From assembly GCA_016928575.1 (NCBI GenBank), contig JAFGKK010000002.1, positions 65,519-129,518 on the forward strand: DNA of 64,000 bases. Reading direction: 5' to 3'. The position numbers were made by a program, and so were the translations under genes. Below, piece after piece: positions 37,101-55,557 of this stretch; the first letter of the stretch is position 1; each line of letters opens with the position of its first letter. A model generated the notes under the pieces. It was given only the letters and a program-made list of their open reading frames with translations. It made no database searches and was not told the origin of the DNA. This DNA is from Anaerolineales bacterium. GTDB lineage: Bacteria; Chloroflexota; Anaerolineae; Anaerolineales; RBG-16-64-43.

Positions 37101-38474
37101 CGCTTCACACAACCCGGACCGGGCCGCAACGTCTTCGTCGTCAATCGCCAATGCCTTCTCAAACTCGACCACCGCCTTCTCATAGGATTTCTGCTCCATA
37201 TACACCAGGGCGATGTTGACCAGGGCCTGGGCATTTTCCGGGGCGACCGCGAGCGCTTCCTGGAAACTTTCAATGGCCTTTTCGTAAACGCCGCTGTCTT
37301 TGAACTCCATCCCAATCTCGATATAGCGGTTGGCGATGGGATTTATCTCGGTCAGTTCCTCGCGCACTTGCTCCAGGGGGCGGTTTTTGCACAACCACAG
37401 TTTGAGCAGGTGGATGACAAAGTGATTGTCCGGAGTGAGCACATCTTTCTCGCGCAAGTGGAGCAAGGCGGATGTCAAATTGGAGTCGCTGAAACGGACG
37501 CGCTGCTTGCGCAGAAAGTCGGCAAGGCCGCGGCTGTCCGCCGGACCGAGCTGTGCGAGGGCCGCCAGGGACCATTTTTCCAGATCCGCGGCCTCGTCCC
37601 AGAGGAATTTTAAATTGACCGTTCCGCGTTCCACCACATCGTCCAGAACGGCTTCGACATCCGATTTGCCGATTTCCCGTTGGCCCGTCCGCTGGCAGCG
37701 CGCGAATAATTCATGACAGATCAGCTGGGTGAAGTATGGATGACCGGAAGCGATCTGATAAATGGAATGGGCGGACGGACGCTGGTAATTAATCAGGCCT
37801 TCCACCGGCAGTGTGATCAGGTTGCGCGATTCATCCTCGGAAAGAAAGCTGATCTTTTTGTACAGGGCCGTTTTAAAAAAATCGGTATACGCGGCCTGCA
37901 TGTTTTCCAGTTTCCGTCCCGAGGAACCGATGGAGAATATGAAATTAAGCCCCTGTTGTTCCAGCAGCCGGCGCAGATAATCGATCAGCGGGCGGGCCAG
38001 CGCTTCCCGGACCTCCGATTCTTCCAAATTGTCAAATTCGTCAAATGTCAGCAGCAGCGAATGGTCGCCAAGAATGGGCTTTAAGCCGGGGATAAATTGA
38101 TGTTCGAAATATTCCAAATCGGCAGTAAAGAGGCCTTTTTCCGGCAACGGAACGTCCAAGTTATGGGCTTGCTTGAGCCCCCGGACAATTTCACGCGCGA
38201 GCCACCATAAAAAACGGTCCAGGGTCGTGTGCGTACGGCCTTGAAAGTCGAAGAAAACCGGGATAAAACGCTCCGGCAGGCGGTTTCCCAGTTGCTTGAG
38301 GACGGATGTCTTCCCCACCCGCCTTTGACCGTGGAGAACCAAGATGTGGTCGGCATACCGTCCGGAAAGGTTATTCCGGATCCAATCAAAGACATCCTCC
38401 CGGCCGAAGAACATCCTGGCTTCGGTAACGGGTGCGCCGGCAATATATGGGTTTACAATTTCGTCCATATTCAC
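34134..38474 (-). CDS. Transmembrane STAND/ATPase_2-like NTPase with TPR array and extracytoplasmic Asp-box (BNR) propeller region
   Basis: 1446 aa. N-terminal NPYIAGAPVTEARMFFGRE, Walker A GQRRVGKTS and Walker B LLLTFDEFD. About 350 aa of TPR-like repeats. TM helix WLWGGVGAMAILVLGGLAL (nt ~36133-36195). 13 Asp-box-like motifs (TIDGGASW, TTDGGANW, STDGGDTW..). Start is GTG 38474 or ATG 38468. Confidence 0.85.
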   Translation of the reverse strand: MNMDEIVNPYIAGAPVTEARMFFGREDVFDWIRNNLSGRYADHILVLHGQRRVGKTSVLKQLGNRLPERFIPVFFDFQGRTHTTLDRFLWWLAREIVRGLKQAHNLDVPLPEKGLFTADLEYFEHQFIPGLKPILGDHSLLLTFDEFDNLEESEVREALARPLIDYLRRLLEQQGLNFIFSIGSSGRKLENMQAAYTDFFKTALYKKISFLSEDESRNLITLPVEGLINYQRPSAHSIYQIASGHPYFTQLICHELFARCQRTGQREIGKSDVEAVLDDVVERGTVNLKFLWDEAADLEKWSLAALAQLGPADSRGLADFLRKQRVRFSDSNLTSALLHLREKDVLTPDNHFVIHLLKLWLCKNRPLEQVREELTEINPIANRYIEIGMEFKDSGVYEKAIESFQEALAVAPENAQALVNIALVYMEQKSYEKAVVEFEKALAIDDEDVAARSGLCEAHLAIGNAAADRGRIREGTQSFQRVLSINAEHTEARQRLAEIQRQQAEKALKEGRDEQALSAFAEALKYTPEDPILIERVQSVQSEKKAKVLASLVAKSEKEISAKNLDSAAATLEEALRLAPEDAALQKRLAEVRQLLQTARLEILRARSKQMEAEKNWEAAIASLKEYLALMPDDESVQKRLAANQIQQREAQRNSLQSKAQSLSKAEKFSDALTAWNELLLLAPDDAEMIRGEMGKVESAQSLAQTYSEAQRAMAKKNYAKAIGLMKSIVINNPDYKDASQILAQAVELRQKTRKFWQSRWLWGGVGAMAILVLGGLALQRMVPSSTSPTAVSTQPTSLSNLLGASPTRTVTAMPLPTLPPTPIPFQWIRLNAGQFLTRSKVTAIKFDPEDPGIIYAGTADAGVYKTIDGGASWFPAHAGLESAAISTLAIDPNNPQILYASVLPGGIYKTTDGGANWKSVNSANIGWGFTWFSGVTISPTNSNNLYYLNSNVYQSFDGGDSWRPSTFCDGGKYCPPNAGWIVESPVDPQTLFVSNFGLGASDGGVFRSTDGGDTWSLASPKIEDLGWGENLQISRDGNTIIAYARDGVHVSSDGGSTWTHPLTGVFTACAISPQDGRMIVCGKETNDLFKSIDAGKHWQKLPWTNGTIIQIAIKPGASDTILVGGEVVYESVDGGSSWTDKSDGLGGFRTELLLNQNSGDTNSFYLQGQRTEWPGVPLFYSPDKGKNWSPLTQKGYGLAFSADGQTLFRSDFNGLLRSQDGGKNWASLPGVPDPISPGIVAAHPSIDGKVYLPYFNRILISLDKGNTWKESGGFPTDELRQGETISLFFGSDTDVYVYGNEGDYPPYRSSDSGETWSNCNPPGDLDAFTETISMMAVNPQDRKRIWAATRGGGVMASPDGCLSWTRMNTGLRNLFAHAIAIDPNNPQTMYAGTNGGVYISFDAGQHWDPINDGLLGATVVYSIVIDTQSNVYASTPYGIFKLEGT

Positions 38475-39456
38475 TCACTTTTATCCTTTGCACGGGTCGC
38501 GATTGGTTCGGACTCTTTATCTATTCATAGCAACTGTTAAGCCATACGTTGCCGCCGGGATCTGTCCCCGGCCAGTGAAAGCCTTCGCGCAACCAAGCGT
38601 CAAAGAAAACCCGCTTCTGGGCGCCGATGTTGCCTCTACTGGCGATACCCAATCGAATCAATTCTCTTGATCCTGTGTCTCTCCTATCAACCATCCCGCG
38701 GTGTGTAAGGAAGTATACCTCTATAGGCGACTGGAGAAAAACGCGAAATGCAGGTCGCCGTACAATCCATCCCCTCCGGAATATCACTCCCCCCAACCAA
38801 ACCCATCCCAGATGCTTTACTTATCCGTTGGAATAATTGGTCGGTAAGGGGTTTGGAACCCGGGAATAGCTGTGGCAGGGTCCCCCAAAAAATGCAACCG
38901 ACCTCATTTCTCCGGATCCGCGAATGGCTGGACGGTCAGGACGGTTTGGAATGCGTTGATCCTTGCCTGGATGGGGGCGTTCTTGAATTGAAATAGCCAC
39001 AAAATTAACAGGCCAATCGTTTCGGATGCGGAATGGAAGGATGATCCGGACATTCCCTATTACAGACCTTCATGAACCGTTCGCAAACTGCGGTTAGCTT
39101 ATCCTTCATTCTGTAAATTCAGTCCGATGGGGAGCGATCTTCTTTATCCTGCCGTCAATCGCCCATGGATCGCATTGAACTCCATCCGCTTTCCGCTCCT
39201 CAATTCCCGTCCGCAGGCAACGAGCGGCCCGGTTCCATCCATCCCATTCCGCCCCCCCGTGATGGCTGCCGGCTGCAGGGTGAATCCGCCATCCCGCCCC
39301 CCCGCTTCCCATGCCACGGGATGCGGGGGAGGATGGCAGGGGCAGGGCGGGATGGCGCCCGGCGCCGCGCTGGGGCGATGCTTCCGCGGCCCGCCCCACG
39401 GCCCGGGCCGATTTCACAATCATCGCCCGGCGGCCGCTCGATGGAAAAATCTAAAT

Positions 39457-40359
39457 CTAAAAATCCCATGCCGGCTCGGTTTCAAGCCGCACGGCGCGGT
39501 TTCCCCGCCTCTCCTTGGCGGCGGAATCGACGATCCCCGTCTCCGCCCCGGCGGGGGTGACGCCGTTCTCCGCGAGGTAGAATTCCACCAGGTTGTCGGC
39601 GGCGAGTTCTTCCATCCCGCCCGAAAGCCACAGCAGGCTGTTGCAAGCGACTTGGTTTCCTTGAATGACCAGGCGGGTGATTTGGTTGCGTTCCGAGACC
39701 ACTCCGCGGCCGCTGCACCCTCCGCCGTAGACGAAAAACGCCACCCCTTTGGTGATGTCCTTCGAGGCGATGGTGTTCGCTTCGATCCGCACCCCGTCCA
39801 CCCGGTTGTCGCCGGCGCCCTCGCCGCCGAACAGGCTGATCCCTTCGAATTGGAAATCCGGCAATTGGTTCGAGAGGATGCGGATGTTCGCCGGCCGCCC
39901 GGTTTCACCCGAAAGCGGCGGATCACCCGGCGCGGGGAGGTAATATTCCCCCGACGCGGCATACATCGTGATCGCGGCCATCTGCGTGCGGAGGATGTTG
40001 CCTTCCACCGGCACGTCCTCCACGGCGTTCTCGCGCAGTGCGGCGCCCGGATCCGGCAGGTAGGAGGAGGAGTCGATCGCCGCGGCGTGGATCGCCACGC
40101 CGTACTCGGCGTCGGCCGAGACTTCGTTGCCGGTGATCTCCACGCCGCGGATGAAGTTGCCGCTGTTGCCCATGTTCCCCGCCAGGAGGAGGATCCCGGT
40201 CGGGCGCGAGGCGTCGCTGCCCACGCCCTGCGGATCCAGGAAGTTGTCTTTTATGACGACGTTCTCCACCAGGCTGTCGTCGGAGAAGGCCGGCGGTCCC
40301 GGGTGGCCGAAGTAGGCGCTGTAAGATACCGCGCCGCGCCGGGGCGGGAGATAAATCAT
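39457..40359 (-). CDS. Right-handed parallel beta-helix repeat-like protein (possibly truncated)
   Basis: 300 aa with periodic ..N.I.GN.. turns (ITGNEVSA, VEGNILRT, IEANTIAS, IQGNQVAC). No signal peptide. Weak call. Confidence 0.35.
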   Translation of the reverse strand: MIYLPPRRGAVSYSAYFGHPGPPAFSDDSLVENVVIKDNFLDPQGVGSDASRPTGILLLAGNMGNSGNFIRGVEITGNEVSADAEYGVAIHAAAIDSSSYLPDPGAALRENAVEDVPVEGNILRTQMAAITMYAASGEYYLPAPGDPPLSGETGRPANIRILSNQLPDFQFEGISLFGGEGAGDNRVDGVRIEANTIASKDITKGVAFFVYGGGCSGRGVVSERNQITRLVIQGNQVACNSLLWLSGGMEELAADNLVEFYLAENGVTPAGAETGIVDSAAKERRGNRAVRLETEPAWDF

Positions 40360-40514
40360 GGATTTTTTTCGCGCAATTTTCCGGCCACCGAAGCGGAAAT
40401 GCGGTCCCGGCTACTCCGCTTCAGAACCAGAGTATTGGGATTGATCTATAATTGGGCATATTCCCTGCTTTTACAAGCGTGGCAAGCCCTAAGAAACGAC
40501 AACACCGGAGCGCT

Positions 40515-42497
40515 ATGGACCAACCACAACTGAACTGGATCGCCAACTTCATCTGGGGAATCGCCGACGACGTGCTCCGCGACCTCTACGTGCGCGGCAA
40601 GTACCGCGACGTGATCCTGCCGATGACGGTGCTGCGCCGCTTCGACGCGGTGCTCGAGCCTACCAAGCAGGCCGTGCTCGATATGAAGAAGAAGCTCGAT
40701 AAGGCGAAAATTACCAACCAGGATCCGGCGCTCCGCCAGGCGGCCGGGCAGGGTTTTTACAACACCTCCAAATTCACCCTGCGCGATTTAAAGGCCCGCG
40801 CCAGCCAGCAGCAGCTCCGGGCTGATTTCGAAGCCTACCTCGGAGGCTTCTCGCCCAACGTCCAGGAGATCCTCGAAAATTTCGAGTTCCGCAACCAAAT
40901 TCCAAGGCTCTCGAAGGCCGATGCGCTGGGCACGCTGATCGAGAAGTTCCTCTCGCCCGAAATCAACCTCAGCCCGAACCCGGTCCTGAATTCCGACGGC
41001 TCGGAAAAGACACCCGGCCTCGACAACCACGCCATTGGGACCGTATTTGAAGAGCTGGTGCGGCGCTTCAACGAGGAAAACAACGAGGAGGCCGGCGAGC
41101 ACTGGACCCCGCGGGACGCGGTGCGGCTGATGGCGAACCTGATTTTCCTGCCGATCGCCGACGAAATCGAATCCGGGACCTACCTGCTCTACGACGGCGC
41201 GCTCGGCACCGGCGGCATGCTGACCGTGGCGGAAGAGACGCTCAAGGAGCTGGCCGGGAAGCACGGCAAGCAGGTCGCCACGCACCTCTACGGACAGGAG
41301 ATCAACTCCGAGACCTACGCCATCTGCAAGGCGGACCTGCTGCTCAAGGGCGAGGGCGAGGCGGCCGACAACATCGTCGGCGGCCCCGAGTATTCCACGC
41401 TCTCCAACGACGCCTTCCCCTCGCGCGAATTCGACTTCATGCTCTCCAACCCGCCGTACGGAAAAAGCTGGAAAAGCGACCTGGAGCGGATGGGCGGCAA
41501 GGGCGGGATCAAGGACCCGCGCTTTGTCATCGAGCACGCGGGGGATCCGGAATACTCGCTGATAACCCGCTCGAGCGACGGCCAGATGCTGTTCCTGGCG
41601 AATATGCTTTCCAAGATGAAGCACGGCAACAAGCTCGGCAGCCGGATCGCCGAGGTGCACAACGGCTCATCGCTGTTCACCGGCGATGCCGGGCAGGGCG
41701 AGAGCAACATCCGCCGTTGGATCATCGAGAACGATTGGCTGGAGGCGATCGTCGCCCTGCCGCTTAATATGTTCTACAACACCGGCATCGCCACCTACAT
41801 CTGGGTGATTGGCAACCGCAAGCCCAAACACCGCGCCGGCAAGGTGCAGCTCATCGACGCCACGCAGTGGTACAAGCCGCTGCGTAAGAACCTGGGCAAG
41901 AAGAACTGCGAGCTCTCGCCTGAAGATATCGAGCGGATTTGCGACGCATTCCTGCGGTTCGAGGAAACTGAGCAATCGAAAATCTTCCCGAACGCCGCCT
42001 TCGGCTACTGGAAGGTGACGGTCGAACGCCCGCTCCGGTTGAAGGGCATCGACCCCGAAAAGGAATATTCGCCGAAGGAAATCAAGGCGCTCAAAGAAAG
42101 TTCCGAGCGCGCCGAGGATGCGCCGCCGGTCATCCGCAAGATTCATAGGAAGGGAACCGCCGCCGATCCGCTGCGCGGATTGTTCCCGGTGACCATCGGC
42201 GGAAAAGCGGCCGTCGTCGAATACGAGCCCGACCCGGACCTGCGCGACACCGAGCAGGTGCCGATGCTGGAAAAGGGCGGCGTCGAGCCCTTCATCCGCC
42301 GCGAAGTGCTTCCGCACGCCGCGGACGCCTGGATCCTCGCCGAGAGCGTCAAGACCGGATACGAGATCAGCTTCACGCGCTACTTCTACAAGCCGCAGCC
42401 GCTGCGCACGCTGGAGGAAATCCGCACCGACATCCTGGCGCTGGACAAGGAAACCAAGGGTCTCTTGGATGAGATCATCGGGGGCAATGGGGCATGA
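40515..42497 (+). CDS. hsdM: Type I restriction-modification system, DNA methyltransferase subunit M
   Basis: HsdM N-terminal domain NWIANFIWGIADDVLRDLYVRGKYRDVILPMTVLRRFD. AdoMet motif YDGALGTGGML. Catalytic NPPYG (MLSNPPYGKSW). The start is moved to ATG 40515. Confidence 0.92.
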   Translation: MDQPQLNWIANFIWGIADDVLRDLYVRGKYRDVILPMTVLRRFDAVLEPTKQAVLDMKKKLDKAKITNQDPALRQAAGQGFYNTSKFTLRDLKARASQQQLRADFEAYLGGFSPNVQEILENFEFRNQIPRLSKADALGTLIEKFLSPEINLSPNPVLNSDGSEKTPGLDNHAIGTVFEELVRRFNEENNEEAGEHWTPRDAVRLMANLIFLPIADEIESGTYLLYDGALGTGGMLTVAEETLKELAGKHGKQVATHLYGQEINSETYAICKADLLLKGEGEAADNIVGGPEYSTLSNDAFPSREFDFMLSNPPYGKSWKSDLERMGGKGGIKDPRFVIEHAGDPEYSLITRSSDGQMLFLANMLSKMKHGNKLGSRIAEVHNGSSLFTGDAGQGESNIRRWIIENDWLEAIVALPLNMFYNTGIATYIWVIGNRKPKHRAGKVQLIDATQWYKPLRKNLGKKNCELSPEDIERICDAFLRFEETEQSKIFPNAAFGYWKVTVERPLRLKGIDPEKEYSPKEIKALKESSERAEDAPPVIRKIHRKGTAADPLRGLFPVTIGGKAAVVEYEPDPDLRDTEQVPMLEKGGVEPFIRREVLPHAADAWILAESVKTGYEISFTRYFYKPQPLRTLEEIRTDILALDKETKGLLDEIIGGNGA

Positions 42498-43186
42498 AGG
42501 GCGATATACCGGAAAAACCTCGTCGTAAATCGCTCCGGCTGCCTAACTACGATTACGCGGCCGACGGCGCCTATTTTGTAACCATCTGCACGGCCGGCCG
42601 CCAATGCCTGTTTGGAGAGGCGGCAGGCGGCCGGGTCATCCTGAAAGACGGCGGTCGAGCAGCGCGGGCGTGTTGGATGGAAATTCCCGCCCATTACCCG
42701 GCGGTGCGATTGGATTCGTTCGTAGTGATGCCGAACCATATTCACGGGATCATCGTGATTGACAATTCGGCGGATATCGGGATGGCGCGGGACGCAGGGG
42801 CGAATGGTATTTCCGCAGGGGCGAACGGTATTTCCGCAGGGGCGAATAATTATTCGCCCCTACGGGGACCCGTGTTGCGGACCGCATCCCGTGGTGCGGA
42901 TGTCCGCGCGGCGGTGCGGTTCCGTTCCCCGTCCAGGACCGTGGGATCCATTGTGCGCGGGTTTAAAATCGGCGTGACGAAATGGTTCCGATCGAACACG
43001 GACGTCGCCAACGTCTGGCAACGCAACTATTACGAACACATCATCCGCGACGAGGCGTCGTTGCGGCGCATCCGCGAGTATATCGCCGCGAATCCTGCGC
43101 GGTGGGCGTACGATGCCGAAAACCAGGAACACGCGCGGGCCGACGGCATTCCGCTCCAGGTTCCGGGCGAGGGTAAACACGTATGA
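42494..43186 (+). CDS. IS200/IS605-like Y1 (HUH) transposase homologue, RAYT-like
   Basis: 230 aa. Motif PNYDYAADGAYFVTICT. HUH motif VVMPNHIHGIIVI. Catalytic-Tyr motif WQRNYYEHIIRDE..IREYIAANPARW. ATGA overlaps with hsdM (42494-42497) and hsdS (43183-43186). Confidence 0.8.
   Translation: MKGDIPEKPRRKSLRLPNYDYAADGAYFVTICTAGRQCLFGEAAGGRVILKDGGRAARACWMEIPAHYPAVRLDSFVVMPNHIHGIIVIDNSADIGMARDAGANGISAGANGISAGANNYSPLRGPVLRTASRGADVRAAVRFRSPSRTVGSIVRGFKIGVTKWFRSNTDVANVWQRNYYEHIIRDEASLRRIREYIAANPARWAYDAENQEHARADGIPLQVPGEGKHV
42794..42860. repeat. 2.5 copies of a 21-nt tandem repeat ending in a perfect 22-nt palindrome, inside the RAYT-like ORF
   Basis: gcaggggcgaatggtatttcc / gcaggggcgaacggtatttcc / gcaggggcgaataattattcgcccc. 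The palindrome ggggcgaataattattcgcccc lies at 42839-42860. The repeat encodes GANGISAGANGISAGANNYSP in frame. Confidence 0.9.
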
Positions 43187-44535
43187 TCGCCGAGCTAAAG
43201 GCTTATCCTAAAATGAAGGACTCCGGCGTGCCGTGGCTCGGGAAGATCCCGTACCATTGGAATATGAGGCGCGCGAAATGGTTATTTCGAAAAATGAATC
43301 GTATCGTTCGCGATTTTGATGAAGTGGTTACTTGTTTTCGCGATGGCTCAGTTACATTAAGGAAGAACAGAAGACTACGTGGATTTACCGAGTCCTTGAA
43401 GGAAATCGGATATCAAGGAATTCGGCAGGGTGACCTTGTAATACATGCAATGGATGCCTTTGCGGGTGCAATCGGGGTTGCTGATTCCGATGGAAAGGGC
43501 ACACCTGTTTATTCGGTATGTAAGCCTATGCAGGCGGCTAACTCGCACTACTTTGCATTTACAGTAAGAGAGATGGCTCGGAGCGCGTGGATTCAAGCCC
43601 TAGCAAAGGGAATACGGGAGAGATCAACGGATTTCCGTTTTGAGGAATTCTCTTCACAATTATTGCCTCTTCCGCCGAGCGGCGAACAAGCAGCCATCGT
43701 CCGCTTCCTCGACTACATGGACCGGCGGATACGGCGATACATTCGCGCCAAGCAGAAGCTGATCAAACTGCTGGAGGAGCAGAAGCAGGCCATCATCCAC
43801 CGCGCCGTCACCCGCGGGCTCGATCCAAACGTCCGCCTCAAGCCGTCCGGCGTGGCGTGGTTGGGGGAGGTGCCGGAGCACTGGGAAATTAGGCGATTAA
43901 AAAACCTATGCTCAATGAGGAGTGGTGAGGGCATTACTGCAATTTCAATCGAGCCGAAGGGTGATTATCCCGTATTCGGTGGTAACGGGATACGAGGTTA
44001 TACATCTCAATATACACATGATGGAAATTTTATTTTACTCGGGCGTCAAGGGGCATTATGTGGAAATGTTCATGTTGCACATGGCCGTTTTTGGGCTTCA
44101 GAGCATGCAGTAGTAACCACACTCCATGGAACCAACGATTTAAATTGGTTAGCTGCAGTATTACGAATAATGAATCTTAATCAATATTCAATAGCAGCGG
44201 CACAACCTGGGCTTGCCGTCGAAAGGATTCAGAACCTTACAATACCAATTCCTCCCAGACAAGAACAGGAGTTTATTGCTGAAAAAATCCAAGGATCAAC
44301 AACAAGTTTAGCGATTGCCATCGAAAAAATGCATCGCGAGATTTCAATTATCCGCGAATACCGCACCCGCCTTATCGCCGACGTGGTCACCGGCAAACTC
44401 GACGTGCGCGAGGCGGCGGCGCGCCTGCCGGATGAGATGGAGGAACCCGAGCCGATCGAAGAAGAATCGGAGAATGGCGCGGAAGAAGCGGAATCCGGTG
44501 AGATGGATGAGGCGCCGGAGGAGGCCGAATCATGA
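43183..44535 (+). CDS. hsdS: Type I restriction-modification system, specificity subunit S
   Basis: Two variable target-recognition regions alternate with two conserved helices: LPLPPSGEQAAIVRFLDYMDRRIRRYIRAKQKLIKLLEEQKQAIIHRAVTRG and IPIPPRQEQEFIAEKI..REISIIREYRTRLIADVVTGKLDVRE. Acidic C-terminal tail. Confidence 0.9.
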   Translation: MIAELKAYPKMKDSGVPWLGKIPYHWNMRRAKWLFRKMNRIVRDFDEVVTCFRDGSVTLRKNRRLRGFTESLKEIGYQGIRQGDLVIHAMDAFAGAIGVADSDGKGTPVYSVCKPMQAANSHYFAFTVREMARSAWIQALAKGIRERSTDFRFEEFSSQLLPLPPSGEQAAIVRFLDYMDRRIRRYIRAKQKLIKLLEEQKQAIIHRAVTRGLDPNVRLKPSGVAWLGEVPEHWEIRRLKNLCSMRSGEGITAISIEPKGDYPVFGGNGIRGYTSQYTHDGNFILLGRQGALCGNVHVAHGRFWASEHAVVTTLHGTNDLNWLAAVLRIMNLNQYSIAAAQPGLAVERIQNLTIPIPPRQEQEFIAEKIQGSTTSLAIAIEKMHREISIIREYRTRLIADVVTGKLDVREAAARLPDEMEEPEPIEEESENGAEEAESGEMDEAPEEAES

Positions 44536-45176
44536 CCGTTCCGGCGCAGCCCAAGATTTATCATATCGTTCATGTGGACCTGCTGGAATCCATCATTGCC
44601 GACGGACAAATCTGATGCGATCGGGAGAAACAAAGGCATCCGCTTACCGGAACTCCCATCGGGATGAGCGGGGTTAAGCGGCGGCGGCTTGAAGAGCTGC
44701 GTCTTTCCAGCCATCCCGACCTGTTCGTGGGGGATTGCGTGCCTTTCTACTTTTGACCGCGTTCGGTCATGCTGTACATGATCGCCCAGGGCAATCATCC
44801 GGAACTAACCTACCATGGCGGGCAGGATCCCATTATCCATCTCGAAGCCGACCTGCGTTCGGTAGTCGCCTGGGCCGATGCAAATGGCCGGCGTTGGGCT
44901 TTCACATTATCCAACGCGGGCGCCCGGTATTTTGAGGACCGGTGCGACCTTGACCGGCTTGGCGAAATAAATTGGGACGCGGTGGAAGCCACCGAATGGA
45001 GGTTATGCAAAGACGGAAAACAAGCCGAATTCCTTCTGGAACGCAGCTTTCCCTGGAGCTTGGTGGAACGGATCGGGGTACATTCGCAGGGAATCTACCA
45101 AAGGGTGGCGAATGCCCTTCCGAAAACGGGCCATCATCCGGGGGCGGAAATCCGCACGGAATGGTATTATCCATGA
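44532..45176 (+). pseudogene. darT: DarT (DUF4433) ssDNA ADP-ribosyltransferase toxin, single frame interrupted by two in-frame TGA codons
   Basis: One frame from ATG 44532 to TGA 45176 reads MTVPAQPKIYHIVHVDLLESIIADGQI*CDRE..FVGDCVPFYF*PRSVMLYMIAQG..WAFTLSNAGARYF..KQAEFLLERSFPW. The in-frame TGAs lie at 44613-44615 and 44754-44756. No frameshift. ATGA overlaps at both ends. Confidence 0.8.
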
Positions 45177-46252
45177 AGGAGACCGCGATGATCGAATATA
45201 AAAGCGGCGACATTTTGAACAGCAAGGCCGACGCGCTCGTCAACAGCGTCAATTGCGTCGGCGTGATGGGGCGCGGAATCGCGTTGCAGTTCAAAACCGC
45301 CTATCCGGACAACTTCAAAGCGTATGCCGCGGCCTGCAAACGGGAGGAAATTCAGCCCGGCCGCATGTTTGTCTTTGAAACCGGCCGGATAGACCCTCCG
45401 CGGTTCATTATCAATTTCCCCACCAAACGCCACTGGCGGGGTAAGAGCCGGATCGAAGATATCGAAGCCGGATTGACGGCGCTTGCGGGAGTCATTCGTT
45501 CCAAGGGTATTCATTCGATTGCGATCCCGCCCTTGGGGGCCGGTCTGGGCGGGCTGGATTGGGCCAGCGAGGTGCGGCCGCGCATCGAGCAAGCATTGAG
45601 TCCGCTGACCGATGTGACCGTTCTCATTTATAAGCCGGAAGGGGCGCCGGCGTCGGACGTCATGAAGCACCGCCGTGATGTGCCAAAAATGACTCCCGGC
45701 CGGGCCGCCTTGGTGGGATTGATGTCCCGCTATCTCGGCGGTCTGCTCGATCCTTTCATTACTCTTCTGGAATTGCATAAACTGATGTATTTTATGCAGG
45801 AGGCCGGAGAGCCTTTACAGCTTCGATATAAGCAAGGTCTCTTTGGCCCGTATGCGGAAAATTTACGCCACGTTTTGCATGAAATCGACGGGTACATGGT
45901 CGCCGGATACAACAACGGCGGCGACGCGCCCCATAAGCAATTAACTCTTGTGCCCGGGGCGGTGGCGGATGCCGAAACTATCCTGAATGAGCATGAGGAT
46001 ACACGCGTTCGTTTCGACCGGGTGGCTTCGCTGGTGGATGGTTTCGAATCGCCGTTTGGATTGGAATTGCTTTCCACCGTCCATTGGGTGATGAAGAACG
46101 AGCCGGTGCGTTCGCAGGAGGAGGTAGTCGATCGCACCTATTCGTGGAACGAGCGCAAGCGTCAGTTTACCCCCCGTCAAATAAAAATCGCAGCGGAGAC
46201 CCTCATGGAAAAGGAATGGGTGTCTCCCCTGCCTGGGCAAATCTCGCAGTGA
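45173..46252 (+). CDS. darG: DarG antitoxin (macrodomain DNA ADP-ribosyl glycohydrolase + C-terminal DarT-binding domain)
   Basis: Macrodomain IEYKSGDILNSKADALVNSVNCVGVMGRGIALQFK..INFPTKRHWRGKSR..IAIPPLGAGLGGLDW. ATGA overlap with darT at 45173-45176. Confidence 0.85.
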   Translation: MKETAMIEYKSGDILNSKADALVNSVNCVGVMGRGIALQFKTAYPDNFKAYAAACKREEIQPGRMFVFETGRIDPPRFIINFPTKRHWRGKSRIEDIEAGLTALAGVIRSKGIHSIAIPPLGAGLGGLDWASEVRPRIEQALSPLTDVTVLIYKPEGAPASDVMKHRRDVPKMTPGRAALVGLMSRYLGGLLDPFITLLELHKLMYFMQEAGEPLQLRYKQGLFGPYAENLRHVLHEIDGYMVAGYNNGGDAPHKQLTLVPGAVADAETILNEHEDTRVRFDRVASLVDGFESPFGLELLSTVHWVMKNEPVRSQEEVVDRTYSWNERKRQFTPRQIKIAAETLMEKEWVSPLPGQISQ

Positions 46253-49200
46253 GCGTCACCGACATCTCCGAACGCGGCCTCGAAAGTCTGATCTGCGCGG
46301 CGTTGACCGGCTCGCCGTGTCTGTCCGCCGAAGGCTCGGCGATGGCGGGCGAAACGGGAGACGCCCAAGCTGTCCATGAACGGCCGGCGGCCTACGGAGC
46401 CGGATGGATCTGCGGCGATCCGGAAGCCTACGACCGCGAATATTGCGTCGACCTCGCCCAATTATCGGCTTTCCTGAACGCGACCCAGCCGGAAACCGCC
46501 GACGCGCTCGAACTCGGCCGCGACGGCCCTGCGCGCCGCTCGTTCCTGGCGCGGTTGCAGGGCGAAATCAGCAAGCGCGGAACCATCGACGTCTTACGCA
46601 ACGGCATTAAGCACGGACCGCACCACATCGACCTGTTTTTCGGAACCCCCTCGCCGGGCAACGCCAAAGCTGCCGAGCGCTTTGCCGCGGACCGTTTCAG
46701 CGTCACCCGCCAGTTGCGCTACAGCCGGGATGAAACCCAGCATTCGCTCGACCTGTGCCTATTCATTAACGGTCTGCCCGTCGCCACCTTCGAACTGAAG
46801 AACAGCCTGACCAAGCAAACGGTCGAGGACGCCATCCAGCAGTACCAGCGCGACCGCGATCCGCGCGAGAGGCTCTTCGAGTTCGGGCGCTGCGTGGCGC
46901 ATTTCGCCGTGGACGACCATGAAGTGCGTTTCTGCACCCACCTCGCCGGCAAGAGCGCCTGGTTCCTGCCTTTCAACCGGGGCTGGAACGACGGCGCAGG
47001 CAATCCACCCAATCCGGACGGCTTGAAAACCGACTACCTCTGGAAGCGAATCCTCACCCGCGACGGCCTCACAGACATTCTCGAAAACTACGCGCAGATC
47101 ATCGAAACCAAGGACCCGAAGTCCGGTAAGAAAAAAGCGGTTCAAATCTGGCCGCGGTTCCATCAGCTCGACGTGGTGCGCAAACTGCTCGCCGACATCC
47201 GGGAAGCCGGCGCCGGCCGGCGCTACCTGGTCCATCACTCGGCGGGGAGCGGAAAATCCAACTCCATCGCCTGGCTGGCGCACCAGCTGATCGGCTTGAA
47301 AAAGAACGACGCCGCTGTCTTCGATTCGATCATCGTCGTCACCGACCGGATCCTCCTCGACCAGCAGATCCGCGACACGATCAAACAATTCGCCCAGGTC
47401 AGCGCCACGGTCGGCCATGCCGAGCGTTCGGGGGACCTGCGCAAGTTCATCGCCGAGGGAAAGAAGATCATCATCACCACGGTGCAGAAGTTCCCCTTTA
47501 TTCTCGATGAGATCGGCAGCGAGCATCGCGGGCGGAAATTCGCGATCATCATCGACGAGGCGCACTCCAGCCAGGGCGGCCGCACCTCGGCGGCGTTGTC
47601 GATGGCGCTCTCCGCGGCCGGAGCCGAGGACGAAGACGAAACGCTGGAAGACAAGATCAACCGGTTGATGGAATCCAAGAAGCTGCTGCCCAACGCCAGC
47701 TACTTCGCCTTCACGGCCACGCCCAAGAACAAGACGCTCGAGATTTTCGGCGAGCCCGAGCCGCAGCCGGACGGCAAGGTCAAGCACCGGCCGTTCCACA
47801 GCTATACGATGAAGCAAGCCATCCAGGAGGGTTTCATCCTGGATGTGCTTAAGTATTACACGCCGGTGGACAGCTACTACAAGCTGGTCAAGAAAATCGA
47901 GGGCGACCCCGAATTCGACACCAAACGGGCGAAGAAAAAACTGCGCCGCTACGTCGAAAGCCACGAACACGCCATCCGGCTCAAAGCCGAGATCATGGTC
48001 GACCACTTCCACGAGCAAGTTTTGGCGCTGAATAAAATCGGCGGCGAGGCGCGGGCGATGGTCGTGACGAGCGGCATCGAGCGCGCAATACAGTACTTCC
48101 ACGCCATCCGCGACTACCTGGCCGAGCGCAAGAGCCGTTACCGGGCGATTGTGGCGTTTTCGGGCGAGCACGAATACGGCGGGGTCAAGGTCACTGAGGC
48201 GTCTCTCAACGGTTTCCCTTCCAGCCAAATCGCCGACAAAATTCAGGAGGATCCGTATCGTTTTCTGATCTGCGCCGATAAATTCCAGACCGGATACGAC
48301 GAACCGCTTCTGCACACGATGTACGTGGATAAGGTGCTTTCCGGGATCAAGGCCGTGCAGACCCTTTCGCGCCTCAACCGGGCGCATCCGAAGAAGCACG
48401 ACGTGTTCGTGCTCGACTTCATGAACGACTCCGACACGATCCAGTTGGCGTTCTCCGACTACTACCGGACGACGATTCTGGCGGAGGAGACCGATCCCAA
48501 CAAACTGCACGACCTGAAGGCATCACTCGACGATTATCAGGTCTATGCACCCGTGCAGGTGGAAGAGCTCGTAGCGCTCTATCTGGGCGGCGCCGACCGC
48601 GACCGGCTCGACCCGATCCTCGACGCCAGCGTCGCGGAATACCGGGGGCGGCTGAACGAGGACGGGCAGGTCGATTTCAAGGGAAAGGCCAAAGCCTTCC
48701 TGCGGACATACGGATTCCTATCCTCGATCCTGCCGTATACCAATGCCGATTGGGAAAAGCTTTCAATCTTCTTAACATTCCTGGTTCCCAAATTACCGGC
48801 GCCGGTGGAAGAAGACCTCGCGCGTGGGATCCTCGAAGCGATCGACATGGACAGTTATCGAGTGGAAAAACAGGCGGCCATCCGGATCCAGCTTCCCGAC
48901 GCTGACGCGGAGATTGGCCCGGTCCCCGCGCTCGGCGGCGGCCACCTGCCCGAACCCGAACTCGACCGGCTTTCCAACATCATCAAAGCCTTCAATGACC
49001 AATTCGGGAACATCCCCTGGTCCGATGCCGACCGGGTACACAAGCTGATCACCGAGGACATCCCCAGCCGGGTCGCTGCGGACAAGGCGTACCAAAATGC
49101 GCGACTGAATTCCGACAGACAAAACGCCCGGATCGAGCACGACAAGGCGCTCGCCCGGGTGATGACGACGGTGCTGAGGGACGACACCGAGTTGTTCAAA

Positions 49201-49281
49201 CAGTTCATGGATAATGAGGGATTCCGGCGCTGGCTGACGGATACGGTGTTCGGGCTGACGTATGAATCCCCAAGACCATAG
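46249..49281 (+). CDS. hsdR: Type I restriction enzyme, endonuclease/translocase subunit R
   Basis: N-terminal PD-(D/E)xK region DLCLFINGLPVATFELKN. Helicase motif I HHSAGSGKSNSIAWLA and motif II IIIDEAHSSQ. Later motifs are present. GTG 46249 is proposed as the start because it forms a GTGA overlap with the darG stop. ATG 46216 is the alternative. Confidence 0.9.
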   Translation: MSVTDISERGLESLICAALTGSPCLSAEGSAMAGETGDAQAVHERPAAYGAGWICGDPEAYDREYCVDLAQLSAFLNATQPETADALELGRDGPARRSFLARLQGEISKRGTIDVLRNGIKHGPHHIDLFFGTPSPGNAKAAERFAADRFSVTRQLRYSRDETQHSLDLCLFINGLPVATFELKNSLTKQTVEDAIQQYQRDRDPRERLFEFGRCVAHFAVDDHEVRFCTHLAGKSAWFLPFNRGWNDGAGNPPNPDGLKTDYLWKRILTRDGLTDILENYAQIIETKDPKSGKKKAVQIWPRFHQLDVVRKLLADIREAGAGRRYLVHHSAGSGKSNSIAWLAHQLIGLKKNDAAVFDSIIVVTDRILLDQQIRDTIKQFAQVSATVGHAERSGDLRKFIAEGKKIIITTVQKFPFILDEIGSEHRGRKFAIIIDEAHSSQGGRTSAALSMALSAAGAEDEDETLEDKINRLMESKKLLPNASYFAFTATPKNKTLEIFGEPEPQPDGKVKHRPFHSYTMKQAIQEGFILDVLKYYTPVDSYYKLVKKIEGDPEFDTKRAKKKLRRYVESHEHAIRLKAEIMVDHFHEQVLALNKIGGEARAMVVTSGIERAIQYFHAIRDYLAERKSRYRAIVAFSGEHEYGGVKVTEASLNGFPSSQIADKIQEDPYRFLICADKFQTGYDEPLLHTMYVDKVLSGIKAVQTLSRLNRAHPKKHDVFVLDFMNDSDTIQLAFSDYYRTTILAEETDPNKLHDLKASLDDYQVYAPVQVEELVALYLGGADRDRLDPILDASVAEYRGRLNEDGQVDFKGKAKAFLRTYGFLSSILPYTNADWEKLSIFLTFLVPKLPAPVEEDLARGILEAIDMDSYRVEKQAAIRIQLPDADAEIGPVPALGGGHLPEPELDRLSNIIKAFNDQFGNIPWSDADRVHKLITEDIPSRVAADKAYQNARLNSDRQNARIEHDKALARVMTTVLRDDTELFKQFMDNEGFRRWLTDTVFGLTYESPRP

Positions 49282-49525: not shown

Positions 49526-50380
49526 GTGTCCGAAAAAGAATATATTCTATTCTGCGACGAGTCCGATAAGCGCGGCAAATACTATTCCAATTTCTATGGC
49601 GGAGTCCTGGTAGGTGCATCATAATATCAACGCGTTTCAAGGCGCCTTGGAGAAGTTAAAACCGGTCAAAATCTGTTTGGCGAGATCAAATGGGAGAAAG
49701 TCACCGATCGGTATCTTGAAAAATACAAACGGCTTATCCATGCGTTCTTCGAAGAGATCTCCAGGGGGAATCTCCGTGTTCGGGTAATGTTCCACCAGAA
49801 TGCGAATCGGCCGCGGGCTTTGGCGCGCATGCAAGTGGAATTCGAATACTTTCTACTCTATTACCAGTTCATCAAACATGCCTTCGGGCTGGAATTCGCG
49901 CCGGGCCCAATCCGGATGCGCCTGTATTTTGATACCTTCCCCGACACCGAGGAAAAAACCGCGCAGTTCAAGGGCTATCTGCTGGGCCTGACAAAAACAA
50001 AAAGATGGCGCACCGTCGACATCCAGCGCGAGGATATCACGGAAGTGCGCACCCGCAACCATGTCCTCCTGCAATGCCTGGATATCGTATTTGGTTCCAT
50101 GTCATTCCGTTTAAACGATAAGCACAAGGAAAAACTGGCTGATTCGAGCCGGCGGAGAAAACGCACGATCGCAAAGGAACAACTTTACCGCTTTATCTTG
50201 GCGGAAATTGGGAAAATACATCCGAGGTTCAACATTGGCATTAGCACCAGCTTGCATGGAGATGCCAACCGACAGTGGAGTGATCCCTATCTGCATTGGA
50301 ATTTCGTTCCCGCGGATGGAGTGTTCGAATCTACGCTTACCAAACCGCGGAGAAAGGGGAAAAAAGAAAACCCCATCTGA
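49526..50380 (+). pseudogene. DUF3800-family protein interrupted by one in-frame TAA
   Basis: From GTG 49526 the frame reads SEKEYILFCDESDKRGKYYSNFYGGVLVGAS*YQRV..GEIKWEKV..RVRVMFHQN.. and continues into the 197-aa ORF. The N-terminal (Y/F)CDES motif is the DUF3800 hallmark. The TAA lies at 49622-49624. Confidence 0.6.
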
Positions 50381-50625
50381 CCTACATATGTATCTGGCGC
50401 ATAACGTCAGACTTCGGTCAGACAGGGTTTCATTTACGTAGTAAATATAGCATAATAAATAGGTTCTGTCCATAAACGCATTGTTTTTGGCTGGTGTAAA
50501 GGCAGATTCCTGAACTTGCGCATGATTGAACGAAGGGGGAAAACGGGCATAAATCCAAAAGCGATTATCAAGAATAGGCCTGATCGGACAGATAATTGAC
50601 GCATCAATAATCACTGGAGGGGACC

Positions 50626-52074: not shown

Positions 52075-53175
52075 TTGGAGTTCCCGTTGAAACCCATGCA
52101 AACGATCCTGTCCCTGACCCATGGTTGGAATCTACCGCGAGACGAAAAAGACGCGGAAAGGCTCATCTCCGCCTATTATGAACTATCCACGGCCGAAGGT
52201 AAGAAACTGGCGCAAAAGGTTCTCCATTCCAAAGATGAAAAAACCTGTGAAATAATACTCCTCAACCTTTCCCTGTTGGTTCCCGGTTCTCTGGAAGGCC
52301 ATTATCCTGAAATCATCGAACGCAGGTTTTTCGATTGGTATGAGTATTTCCGGTATGCGGAACCTGATGTCCGGGAGATGATCATAAAAAGGATCCGGTC
52401 CGAAAAAGAACCGAAGATGAAACGGGGGTTGATTTATGCCTTGGCTTGGATCGGGGATATTCCTGCGCAAAAGGAACTGGCCGCCATGGCCGATCAGAAT
52501 GTGGATTGGGGGAGTCCGGAGGCGGAAAAACTCGCGCCCACGATTTCGCACCTCATTCCCATGGCCGGTTGGGAATTGACGGGAAAGGGCGAGCGCAGGG
52601 ATCTCTATCTGCCGACGGCGTACGACTTGGACTTGATCGATCGTGAACCGACCGAGATTACTCGGGGATCCTGTCCGTGGTGCGGAACGGAGTTGAAACC
52701 GACATTCGAATTTGATCTTTCGGACGAAAGAACCAGGGAAATCGGACTTGACGGCGGGAAGATAATTCTCGGCATGTGCACGCGCTGCGTGCAGTACGCA
52801 GCGATCTTCACCGAATTGGATGCACAAGGCGGCTTCCGGTGGAGCCCGCACAATGAGAAACCCTCCAACCTTCCGGAGGCCTTTCCCGATCCGGATGAAA
52901 TCGGAGCGTTCTGGTCGATGAACCGGATCCGGATCGGCAAACAAAGACGTTCCCCGTACGAGAGAGTGGCCTGGTTACCGACCGGAATGGAGCGATTCGG
53001 AGGCTTTCCGGGTTGGGTGCAATGGCCGGAATACCCGGTTTGCCCATCCTGCAAGCGCAGGATGGTTTGCTTAGCGCATGTGGATTATGCTTCGACCGGG
53101 CAAGCCTCCGGTGTGGCGTATGGCTTTCTCTGCAAGGAATGCCTGATGGGGGCGGTGAATATGCAGTGCGATTAG
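52075..53175 (+). CDS. Hypothetical protein with HEAT-like N-terminus and Cys-rich (zinc-ribbon, DUF1963-like) C-terminus
   Basis: CPWCG..CTRC and CPSCKRRM..FLCKECL cysteine pairs. The terminal GGFPGWVQWPEYPVCPSCKRRMVCLAHVD..GVAYGFLCKEC resembles the DUF1963/YwqG end. It starts at TTG 52075 or ATG 52096, directly after the NERD stop. Confidence 0.45.
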   Translation: MEFPLKPMQTILSLTHGWNLPRDEKDAERLISAYYELSTAEGKKLAQKVLHSKDEKTCEIILLNLSLLVPGSLEGHYPEIIERRFFDWYEYFRYAEPDVREMIIKRIRSEKEPKMKRGLIYALAWIGDIPAQKELAAMADQNVDWGSPEAEKLAPTISHLIPMAGWELTGKGERRDLYLPTAYDLDLIDREPTEITRGSCPWCGTELKPTFEFDLSDERTREIGLDGGKIILGMCTRCVQYAAIFTELDAQGGFRWSPHNEKPSNLPEAFPDPDEIGAFWSMNRIRIGKQRRSPYERVAWLPTGMERFGGFPGWVQWPEYPVCPSCKRRMVCLAHVDYASTGQASGVAYGFLCKECLMGAVNMQCD

Positions 53176-53325
53176 CAGGCGGGAATTAGATTGCGTGATA
53201 GTAATACTGATAGAAATGGGCTTTACCTACAGACGAAAAACATCGTTTCAGGAAAATAATTATATAATGATATTCTGTGAGGACTATCAGCCTGAAAAAC
53301 CAGTAGAGAATAAGGGATAAATTAA

Positions 53326-54015
53326 ATGGATTCATTCAATATGTATCTTGCACTCATGAAAGAGCGCCCCGAGCTTTTTAAGAATACCGGAGAGAAGAAT
53401 GAGATTAAAATCATCCACAATCCGGAACGAATTCTTGCTGAGCAAGAGAAAATTAAGGCCGAGTTGCGTTCTAAAGGATTACCCGAGTATTGGATAGAAA
53501 TTGGTGTTTTATCTGAGGATGAATGGTTCTGGACAGTACGCGATATGGTTGAGTTTCCGAATGGTTTCGTTTGGGGGTATATCCGCCAAATAAACCGAAA
53601 AGTACAAGATGGGGGATTCGGAGTCATATTGTTATGTGCAAGAGAAGGGCAATTATTAATGATTAAAAAATTCCGGCATGAAGAACGGGGTTGGAGTTGG
53701 GAATTTCCTCGTGGCTTTGGCGATCCTAAACTAACGGCAAATGAAAACGCTCAGAAGGAATTACTAGAGGAAACAGGGCTTGTAGAAAAAAAGTTGGAAA
53801 TGCTTGCGGAAATAAAGGAAGGCAAAGGTGGATTGTCTGTATTCCTTGCAAGGATAGAATCCGATCAGAAGATTGTCAAGGATGACGTAGAAGGTATTGG
53901 TGAATATATATGGGTGTCAGAAAAGGATATTGAAAAATTAATCCTGGAAGGAAAGATAAAAGATTGGTTTTCATTGTGGGCTTTTATTTTAGCAAGAAGT
54001 AGAAAGATATTCTAG
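53326..54015 (+). CDS. NUDIX hydrolase (ADP-ribose pyrophosphatase-like)
   Basis: Nudix-box-like GFGDPKLTANENAQKELLEETGL. The KELLEETG core is present. L and K replace the first Glu and the Arg of the canonical GX5EX7REUXEEXGU. Very AT-rich. Confidence 0.75.
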   Translation: MDSFNMYLALMKERPELFKNTGEKNEIKIIHNPERILAEQEKIKAELRSKGLPEYWIEIGVLSEDEWFWTVRDMVEFPNGFVWGYIRQINRKVQDGGFGVILLCAREGQLLMIKKFRHEERGWSWEFPRGFGDPKLTANENAQKELLEETGLVEKKLEMLAEIKEGKGGLSVFLARIESDQKIVKDDVEGIGEYIWVSEKDIEKLILEGKIKDWFSLWAFILARSRKIF

Positions 54016-54029
54016 AAGGGATCAATGCT

Positions 54030-55361: not shown

Positions 55362-55437
55362 ATGTGACAATAAAAAAATAATTATTTCTCATCAGCCCCC
55401 CCCGTCACTGCCCTTTCCTCACCCCCGACCCCAACAA

Positions 55438-55481
55438 CCCCTTTCCCCTCTCCTGACATATGTCAGGAGAGGGGAAAGGGG
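55438..55481. terminator. Perfect 21-bp inverted repeat between convergent genes (bidirectional terminator candidate)
   Basis: cccctttcccctctcctgaca ta tgtcaggagaggggaaagggg. An outer imperfect extension pairs cctcaccc with ggggtgagg. No clear U-tract. Confidence 0.5.
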
Positions 55482-55557
55482 ACAGGGGATAGGGGTGAGG
55501 ATGGAAAAGAGCAGGATTTCATTTCAATATTACTGAGGCTGAGCAGATGCAAATAAT

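Follow-up and report, generated by a model that had tools for sequence, protein, structure and literature searches.

A type I restriction-modification (R-M) operon is located in an Anaerolineales bacterium contig (JAFGKK010000002.1), in the stretch of 64,000 nucleotides that we analyzed as a whole (hereafter, the window), and its genes are arranged in the order hsdM, a RAYT-like Y1/HUH gene, hsdS, darT, darG, and hsdR. Very probably, this locus is one representative of a type I R-M operon that is widespread and moves horizontally; in it, darT is dead and a RAYT-like Y1 gene with a palindrome inside the gene is carried as cargo. The operon is mostly ordinary; the parts worth following are the association of the Y1 gene with R-M genes and the hairpin within the gene. 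Two observations are new. A RAYT-like Y1/HUH subfamily recurs beside type I R-M genes, and its member is the only uncatalogued guest of this operon. In addition, a palindrome that resembles repetitive extragenic palindromic (REP) elements lies within the coding sequence of most members of the subfamily.

The source sequence is a metagenome-assembled genome (MAG). Gene families were assigned with Pfam, PADLOC, and NCBIfam profiles, and these agree on hsdM, RAYT-like, hsdS, darT, darG, and hsdR as the identities of the six genes. The same identities, and the nesting of DarTG and a Y1-transposase homolog in a type I R-M locus, had been proposed in an earlier interpretation made without database searches (the sequence-only reading), and both are confirmed here. 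That reading had further described six open reading frames (ORFs) joined by five coupled overlaps, an ADP-ribosylating toxin-antitoxin module expressed with the operon, and an unusual placement of one guest on each side of hsdS. These latter points had to be revised in part or entirely, as described below.

Decay of darT and the state of the other genes

The frame of darT (44532-45176) is interrupted by TGA at 44613-44615 (codon 28) and by TGA at 44754-44756 (codon 75), and darT is a pseudogene. Among homologs, codon 28 specifies Trp in 47 and Leu in 18 of 73 sequences, and codon 75 specifies Cys in all 76. Each stop is a one-base change from the ancestral codon (TGG to TGA for Trp28, and TGY to TGA for Cys75). 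The longest true ORF in the gene spans 44769-45176 (135 amino acid residues) and is the sole annotation there in GenBank; the Logan gene caller likewise reports just this C-terminal fragment. The locus therefore does not contain six ORFs, and an intact DarT (DUF4433) ORF, as required of a DarTG system, is absent. With two nonsense codons in darT, the claim that a toxin-antitoxin module is expressed with the operon does not hold, and a defence-system caller that reports 'DarTG' at this locus would err, as the toxin gene is dead.

When the stops are masked, homology to DarT is full-length and scores well above the profile cutoff (Table 1), and the masked protein aligns end to end with the Thermus DarT, including the catalytic KQAEF motif. 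Of the 56 most conserved DarT columns, three deviate, one through the stop at Cys75 and two through conservative changes, and no frameshift was found. Because so few conserved columns deviate and the frame is otherwise kept, the inactivation looks recent. The database collections contained no close strain with an intact darT, the next DarG being 77% identical, and the protein databases held no record of the restored, stop-free DarT sequence.

Long genes across the window end in TGA, TAA, or TAG, and four other genes of the operon end in TGA. As all three stops are in ordinary use, the genetic code of the window is the standard one. An Rfam scan of the region detected no recoding element. On these two grounds, TGA recoding, including the insertion of selenocysteine, was rejected as an explanation for the darT codons.

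The genes hsdM, hsdS, darG, and hsdR as well as the Y1 gene are intact. HsdM contains the HsdM_N and N6-adenine methyltransferase domains, and its start at 40515 agrees with that of an identical database protein of 660 residues (P0241). HsdS is full-length, with residues 3-413 of 450 covered by the profile. HsdR contains an N-terminal nuclease and a superfamily 2 translocase domain, and aligns to its relatives over nearly the whole length. DarG is 100% identical to a database protein of 354 residues (P0121); it contains the macrodomain, with the motif NFPTKRHW retained, and the C-terminal domain, and the antitoxin_DarG profile covers residues 7-344. An ORF of 468 codons at 39127-40533, which overlaps the hsdM start, was considered as a seventh gene and rejected: it has no match in Pfam, PADLOC, or NCBIfam, is rich in Arg, Gly, and Pro as is a wrong frame in GC-rich DNA, and is not conserved in the relatives.

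Decay of darT was also observed in other genomes. We surveyed 80 loci (L002-L081) from representative genomes, fetched by the DarG profile. The darT gene was broken in eight of the 76 loci with a detectable darT (L007, L029, L041, L044, L048, L049, L075, and L081), by stops, frameshifts, and one inversion; the stops were of all three kinds and were found at differing positions between loci. In one further locus (L071), darT was absent upstream of darG. The darG gene was full-length in all 80 loci. In toxin-antitoxin systems, the toxin gene can be lost, and the antitoxin gene cannot go first; the asymmetry is thus as expected. With about one in 10 darT genes broken and darG never, these loci offer a clean example of toxin-first decay. 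The inversion is that of L048 (9751-9951), where the last third of darT runs opposite to the first two-thirds; it is an internal inversion and not a point mutation. In the close relative L162 (14600-19500), darT, darG, and hsdR are each split into several short ORFs; this fragmentation may be due to indel error instead of real decay, as the contig name points to a long-read assembly.

All genes of the operon are on the plus strand with no intergenic space, and the ATGA at 42494, 43183, 44532, and 45173 and the GTGA at 46249, as listed in the sequence-only reading, are present. Of the five overlaps for which coupling had been claimed, those of hsdM/Y1, Y1/hsdS, and darG/hsdR stand as plain start/stop overlaps. 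The overlap at the end of hsdS joins a dead gene, and the ATGA between darT and darG is probably coincidental, because three lines of evidence point to another start for darG. The DarG profiles begin at the Met of ATG 45188, as does the database DarG; a Shine-Dalgarno sequence, AAGGAG, is located at 45176-45181, 6 nt upstream of this ATG; and the spacer between darT and darG in relatives is 15-20 nt (for example, 20 nt in L165). The start of darG is most likely ATG 45188, not the ATGA at 45173. A strong Shine-Dalgarno sequence also precedes the darT start. As darT contains stops, translational coupling from hsdS through darT to darG is broken.

For hsdR, the comparison supports GTG 46249 as the start and the 4-nt GTGA overlap with the darG stop as real. 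The HsdR homologs begin 2-4 residues before a conserved TDxSExGLE motif, with stops upstream, and the position of the GTG is occupied by TTGA in L165 and by ATGA in L164, with an in-frame stop just upstream in L165. The alternative start at ATG 46216, chosen by the Logan gene caller, was rejected on the same comparison, and the GTG start, conditional in the sequence-only reading, is retained. The hsdM/hsdS junction is ATGA or GTGA also in relatives without a guest gene; in the sequences compared, 4-nt overlaps are thus a constant trait of this family of operons.

In consensus scans, internal promoter-like and terminator-like sites were no more frequent than in shuffled sequence, which, like the tight junctions, is compatible with one transcript. 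A perfect TATAAT hexamer precedes the hsdM start by 62 nt; the consensus scan did not call it, as a good -35 hexamer is lacking. A single transcript for the operon is plausible.

An operon family with conserved ends and two cargo slots

Close relatives of the operon are widespread. More than 100 protein clusters, spread over many phyla, contain HsdM sequences with 86-90% identity; among the loci compared, the HsdM identity is about 89% in L162-L165, 67-84% in L050 and L052, and about 55% in L079. HsdR is about 86% identical, again between unrelated phyla, in L164 and L165 over the available, contig-truncated part; in L036, L052, L053, and L060, it aligns almost end to end at 69-75% identity. 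In contrast, the identity to close relatives is 36-44% for HsdS, 67% for DarT, and 75% for DarG. The low value for HsdS is expected because the specificity subunit is variable. As HsdM and HsdR are far more conserved than the three proteins between them, the comparison suggests that the middle of the operon has been exchanged by recombination within conserved hsdM and hsdR ends. Together with the fixed overlaps, this pattern suggests that defence cargo is swapped by recombination. About 14 of the 80 DarG loci sampled fall in this type I family.

The gene orders of the relatives reveal one slot between hsdM and hsdS (slot 1) and another between hsdS and hsdR (slot 2). The order is hsdM-SIR2-DUF87-hsdS-darT-darG-hsdR in L165, which encodes an intact DarT of 213 residues with Trp28 and Cys75, and hsdM-SIR2-DUF87-PRTase-NADAR/hsdS-hsdR in L164. 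L162 starts with hsdM-AAA_13-hsdS-darT, and L163 with hsdM-Ymh. Further relatives have ImmA and DUF4411, GmrSD, or Fic, TIR, and Y1 in slot 1. The cargo seen there thus comprises SIR2 with DUF87, AAA_13, Hypoth_Ymh, PRTase/NADAR, ImmA with DUF4411, GmrSD, and Fic with ThsB-TIR, mostly joined by 4-nt overlaps. From these comparisons, the hsdM/hsdS junction of the family is a hotspot for defence cargo, and two guests flanking hsdS are a routine configuration.

The arrangement with one guest on each side of hsdS, which had been called unusual, is therefore found in L165, L162, and other relatives. The sister operons (L162-L165, L050, L052, and L079) share the 4-nt overlaps and the two cargo slots with the operon of the window but differ from it in the cargo of slot 1. 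Among them, only L079 has a Y1 gene, which is 40% identical and directly upstream of hsdS. When the guest order is compared across type I loci, the two-slot layout thus recurs, and the Y1 guest of slot 1 is confined, among the sister operons, to L079. As to whether the arrangement was already known, the darTG slot is published and double nesting is routine; the Y1 guest is uncatalogued.

The location of darTG between hsdS and hsdR has been described as frequent (Jankevicius et al. 2016, PMC5179494; PMC12255303). In enteropathogenic Escherichia coli (EPEC), an island with the order hsdM-hsdS-darT-darG-hsdR (RptR-RMS-DarTG-M48, or 'RRDM') protects against phage (PMC12255303). The operon described here resembles these published operons in its gene families, in the placement of darT and darG between hsdS and hsdR, and in the use of one strand. 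It differs in that darT is a pseudogene and in that an additional Y1 gene lies between hsdM and hsdS. Downstream of the operon, the EPEC island has an M48 peptidase, whereas the window has a broken DUF3800 gene. The ORFs upstream of hsdM matched no Pfam family, and no RptR-like regulator was recognized there, the RptR sequence itself not being part of the comparison. A further parallel is PrrC of EcoprrI, whose gene lies within a type I locus as an accessory and whose role is to guard the restriction enzyme (reviewed in PMC12707154). Like the Y1 gene, prrC is a single accessory gene nested in a type I R-M operon; PrrC, however, acts as an anticodon nuclease, and its trigger is known; the Y1 protein is a homolog of HUH nucleases with no known role in restriction.

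The Y1 gene and its palindrome

The family of the Y1 protein is very large: more than 7,900 database matches were obtained, with a best identity of 57%. Its scores are below the curated thresholds of both NCBIfam and Pfam (Table 1), and PADLOC has no model that covers it. The HUH motif, H82-I-H84 (42737-42745), and Tyr196 (codon 43079-43081), which aligns with the catalytic Y115 of the E. coli TnpA_REP, are invariant in the family. In an AlphaFold (AF2) model (pLDDT 73), residues 95-139 are disordered. The best match of the model in Foldseek was TnpA_REP (4ER8, E 5.6e-5), followed by the transposases of IS608 and ISDra2. The Y1 protein therefore shares with RAYT proteins (TnpA_REP, PDB 4ER8) the HUH-Y1 fold, the conserved HUH motif, and the catalytic Tyr, and differs from them in its sub-threshold scores and in its location within R-M operons. 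The taxonomic range of the subfamily resembles that of the RAYT 'Group 4', which has been described as common in Cyanobacteria, Chlorobia, and Caldilineae. RAYTs and REPtrons are the subject of Nunvar 2010, Di Nocera 2013 (PMC3733652), and Bertels 2017 (PMC5581495).

The Y1 gene has ATGA overlaps at both ends, between full-length HsdM and HsdS genes. The subterminal hairpin ends of an IS200/IS605 element would have no space here, and no second copy exists in the window. A role of the Y1 protein in an hsdS shufflon (phase variation) was rejected, as the window contains a single hsdS.

We surveyed 80 metagenome loci (L082-L161) that encode the nearest homologs of the Y1 protein. This sample is biased, because the copy from which its homologs were sought already lies in an R-M operon, and it has no matched control. 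Type I R-M genes adjoin the Y1 gene in 17 of the 80 loci, on the same strand in all 17; of the 36 loci that reach 5 kb or more, 11 show this adjacency. For the 118 immediate neighbors, the most frequent Pfam families were all of R-M type, namely N6_Mtase, the HsdR domains, and Methylase_S (six each), followed by the Eco57I and MmeI methylases. About 15% of the immediate neighbors are type I R-M proteins; as a rough estimate from general gene frequencies, the share for a random gene would be well under 1%. The spacing to the neighbor is operon-like, mostly -4 to +12 nt. The R-M-linked Y1 genes belong to four sequence clusters, and the adjoining R-M systems are only about 25% identical to that of the window. 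Among four top database matches, two have an R-M operon context, namely hsdS-Y1-hsdR with a 4-nt overlap (P0001) and hsdM-Y1-hsdS (P0071); a third (P0010) adjoins an Eco57I-type methylase and an OLD-like nuclease, and the fourth (P0032) is near HNH and McrB genes. No Y1 homolog was found on 72,556 plasmids. In the open-access literature, we found no description of a Y1 or RAYT gene inside an R-M operon.

Within the Y1 gene, a 21-bp unit repeated 2.6 times (42793-42847) encodes the insert that is disordered in the model. This repeat, GGGGCGAAT...ATTCGCCCC, runs into a palindrome (42834-42865) with CTAC/GCAG heads and arms of 16 bp, CCGCAGGGGCGAATAA and TTATTCGCCCCTACGG. The predicted RNA fold of 42785-42875 has an energy of -41.5 kcal/mol. 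In the Y1 homologs, we scored GC-rich palindromes with a stem of at least 9 and a loop of up to 6. Such a palindrome was found at the equivalent place in 65 of 79 homologs, with a median distance of 316 nt from the gene start; the number expected in an equal-sized flanking window was 0.17. Typical forms are GTAGGGGCGAAAAATTTTTCGCCCCTAC (encoding the peptide VGAKNFSPL), GTAGGGGCACGGCATGCCGTGCCCCTAC, and GTAGAGACGCAAGATTTTGCGTCTCTAC. A head of the GYRG/CYRC type was scored in 38 of the 65 palindromes. Across lineages, the GTAG...CTAC heads tend to stay, whereas substitutions in the stems are paired; this pattern indicates that the hairpin, not the peptide, is under selection.

REPs with GTAG heads and REPtrons are known, including those of Cyanobacteria and Chloroflexi (PMC3733652), and the association with GTAG-headed, GC-rich palindromes is common to RAYTs, REPtrons, and the Y1 subfamily. 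In RAYT systems and REPtrons, the palindromes are in flanking extragenic DNA; in the Y1 subfamily, they are not confined to such flanks but also lie within the gene, where they encode the disordered loop that follows the HUH strand. The copy in the window has no extragenic flanks at all, and in place of extragenic REP or REPIN sequences around the gene it has the in-gene palindrome. This palindrome occurs once in the 64 kb of the window, the extent of the scan, and no REP population was detected in the window. In the homologs, copies of the palindrome are often found just outside the Y1 gene. We found no mention in the open-access literature of a REP inside a RAYT gene itself.

In this operon, slot 1 holds a promoter-less Y1 gene and slot 2 holds darT-darG. 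The genes would probably be co-transcribed from upstream of hsdM. The overlaps could couple translation from hsdM to Y1, from Y1 to hsdS, and from darG to hsdR, and darG would be translated from its own ribosome-binding site. The locus would still methylate and restrict as a classical type I system; abortive infection based on DarT would be lost, and DarG would be kept as an orphan antitoxin. Because the Y1 gene recurs in the orientation of its neighbors, in tight packing, and in a slot where defence genes are otherwise found, it most likely would have an accessory function tied to restriction, either as a single-strand DNA nuclease or through a hairpin that tunes the expression of the operon; a random transposon insertion is less likely.

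Alternative explanations and the genomic surroundings

Two explanations other than decay have to be considered for the stops in darT. The six genes might all be intact in function, with DarT and DarG active in one defence unit, or, as a variant, the two UGA codons might be read through or recoded to give a little full-length DarT. The good preservation of the rest of darT, including KQAEF, and its strong Shine-Dalgarno sequence are consistent with this; moreover, UGA is the leakiest stop codon, and the two stand at Trp and Cys sites of the homologs, the residues that near-cognate tRNAs tend to insert at UGA. However, readthrough of both stops in series would have a vanishing yield, the code is standard, with all three stops used and TGA ending four other genes, no Rfam recoding element is present in the region, and copies of darT elsewhere are broken in unrelated ways, which indicates plain decay. 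We therefore consider an active DarT highly improbable. Artefacts of sequencing, assembly, or consensus, with darT intact in the organism, would account for three nonsense codons within 5 kb in two genes (darT and DUF3800) of a MAG that has no close strain in the databases and whose restored DarT is unrecorded. Against this, an independent contig (L001), the Logan assembly of run SRR13394437 from the same sample, agrees with the window in 2437 of its 2438 aligned bases, both TGA codons among them; the darT defects are substitutions, whereas assembly and long-read errors typically produce indels; the long genes nearby (hsdR, hsdM, and an upstream gene of 1446 codons) are intact; and disruption of darT is common in other genomes. 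An artefact is thus unlikely. Several points nevertheless weigh against a dead darT in a functional, co-transcribed operon. Both agreeing assemblies are probably derived from the same reads, so that a sequencing error or a minority allele could conceivably be involved; the second nonsense-disrupted gene, about 250 nt past hsdR, is compatible with decay of the island as well as with faulty data; the stops leave about 570 nt of darT untranslated, and darG and hsdR could suffer polarity as a result; and the single-transcript model is drawn from gene spacing alone.

The Y1 gene, in turn, may be a selfish passenger, similar to a REPtron or an IS200-like element, that occupies a tolerant spot and has no functional tie to restriction. 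This is a serious possibility, if less than an even one. The protein is homologous in sequence and fold to RAYTs and the IS200/IS605 transposases, PADLOC has no model of it, many homologs do not adjoin R-M genes, and the palindrome copies just outside homologous genes are as in REPtrons. What argues against a passenger is the absence of space for element ends between full-length HsdM and HsdS, the absence of a second Y1 gene or another palindrome copy in 64 kb and of any homolog among the plasmids, and the nature of the R-M association, in which the orientation always matches, the spacing is operon-like, R-M neighbors exceed the expected share, and unrelated type I families and four Y1 clusters are involved. 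The functional reading of the Y1 gene has its own difficulties: the link to R-M genes comes from the homologs nearest an R-M-embedded copy, many of them on short contigs; in several homologs, the palindrome copies flank the gene like a REPtron unit; and transposase-like genes also gather in defence islands for trivial reasons. That the Y1/HUH subfamily (about 190-230 residues, with the in-gene palindrome) is an unrecognized accessory module of R-M operons is accordingly a tentative and rather doubtful proposal. As such a module, it could be a hairpin-specific single-strand DNA nuclease directed against single-stranded invaders, which type I enzymes cannot cut, or the hairpin and the protein could together adjust how strongly the methylase and restriction genes are expressed relative to each other. 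A domesticated transposase family that recurs in restriction operons with an in-frame REP-like hairpin is a candidate for further study; if the family is functional, the RAYT/REP systems, which have long lacked an explanation, would be connected through it with anti-phage immunity.

Table 1. Positions in the window of the operon genes and associated features, with the supporting evidence
Feature	Position	Strand	Evidence
hsdM, type I methyltransferase subunit, 660 aa	40515-42497	+	Pfam HsdM_N (PF12161) and N6_Mtase (PF02384); PADLOC MTase_I, 799 bits
RAYT-like Y1/HUH gene, 230 aa, hsdM/hsdS slot	42494-43186	+	NCBIfam REP_Tyr_transpos (NF047646), 60.6 bits (threshold 80); Pfam Y1_Tnp (PF01797), 20.6 bits (threshold 23)
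REP-like element within the Y1 coding sequence	42793-42865		21-bp repeat and palindrome
hsdS, type I specificity subunit, 450 aa	43183-44535	+	PADLOC Specificity_I, residues 3-413, 293 bits; Pfam Methylase_S; MBN1437859.1
darT pseudogene, DNA ADP-ribosyltransferase toxin	44532-45176	+	With stops masked, Pfam DarT 2.6e-58 and NCBIfam toxin_DarT 227 bits (cutoff 150)
darG, macrodomain antitoxin, 354 aa, intact	45188-46252	+	NCBIfam antitoxin_DarG, 464 bits (cutoff 250); PADLOC DarG, 452 bits
hsdR, type I restriction/translocase subunit, 1010 aa	46249-49281	+	Pfam HSDR_N, SWI2_SNF2, ResIII, T1R_D3-like
TATAAT hexamer, possible -10 box	40447-40452	+	Sequence inspection; weak evidence
DUF3800-family gene, outside the operon	49526-50380	+	Pfam DUF3800 match spans an in-frame TAA at 49622-49624

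The setting of the operon looks like a partly decaying defence island. STAND-type NTPases are encoded upstream on the minus strand, one of the kinase-nSTAND2 type at 29703-31901 and one of 1446 residues with an AAA-TPR-BNR/Sortilin architecture at 34134-38474, and a NERD protein is also found in the surroundings. Directly upstream of hsdM, about 2 kb (38500-40514, 63% GC) contain no recognizable gene, and the relatives share nothing here; the opposite-strand ORFs upstream of hsdM have no family matches. Downstream, an Rfam DUF3800-VIII RNA motif at 50367-50431 on the minus strand (63.3 bits, with a gathering threshold of 40.2; E 2.8e-10) overlaps the disrupted DUF3800 gene at its 3' end, the gene itself being on the opposite strand. 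Further downstream, a low-GC patch at 53000-55500 (37-42%, compared with about 58% elsewhere) contains a NUDIX-domain gene (53326-54015) and unannotated ORFs, and is probably a separate foreign insert in the island.

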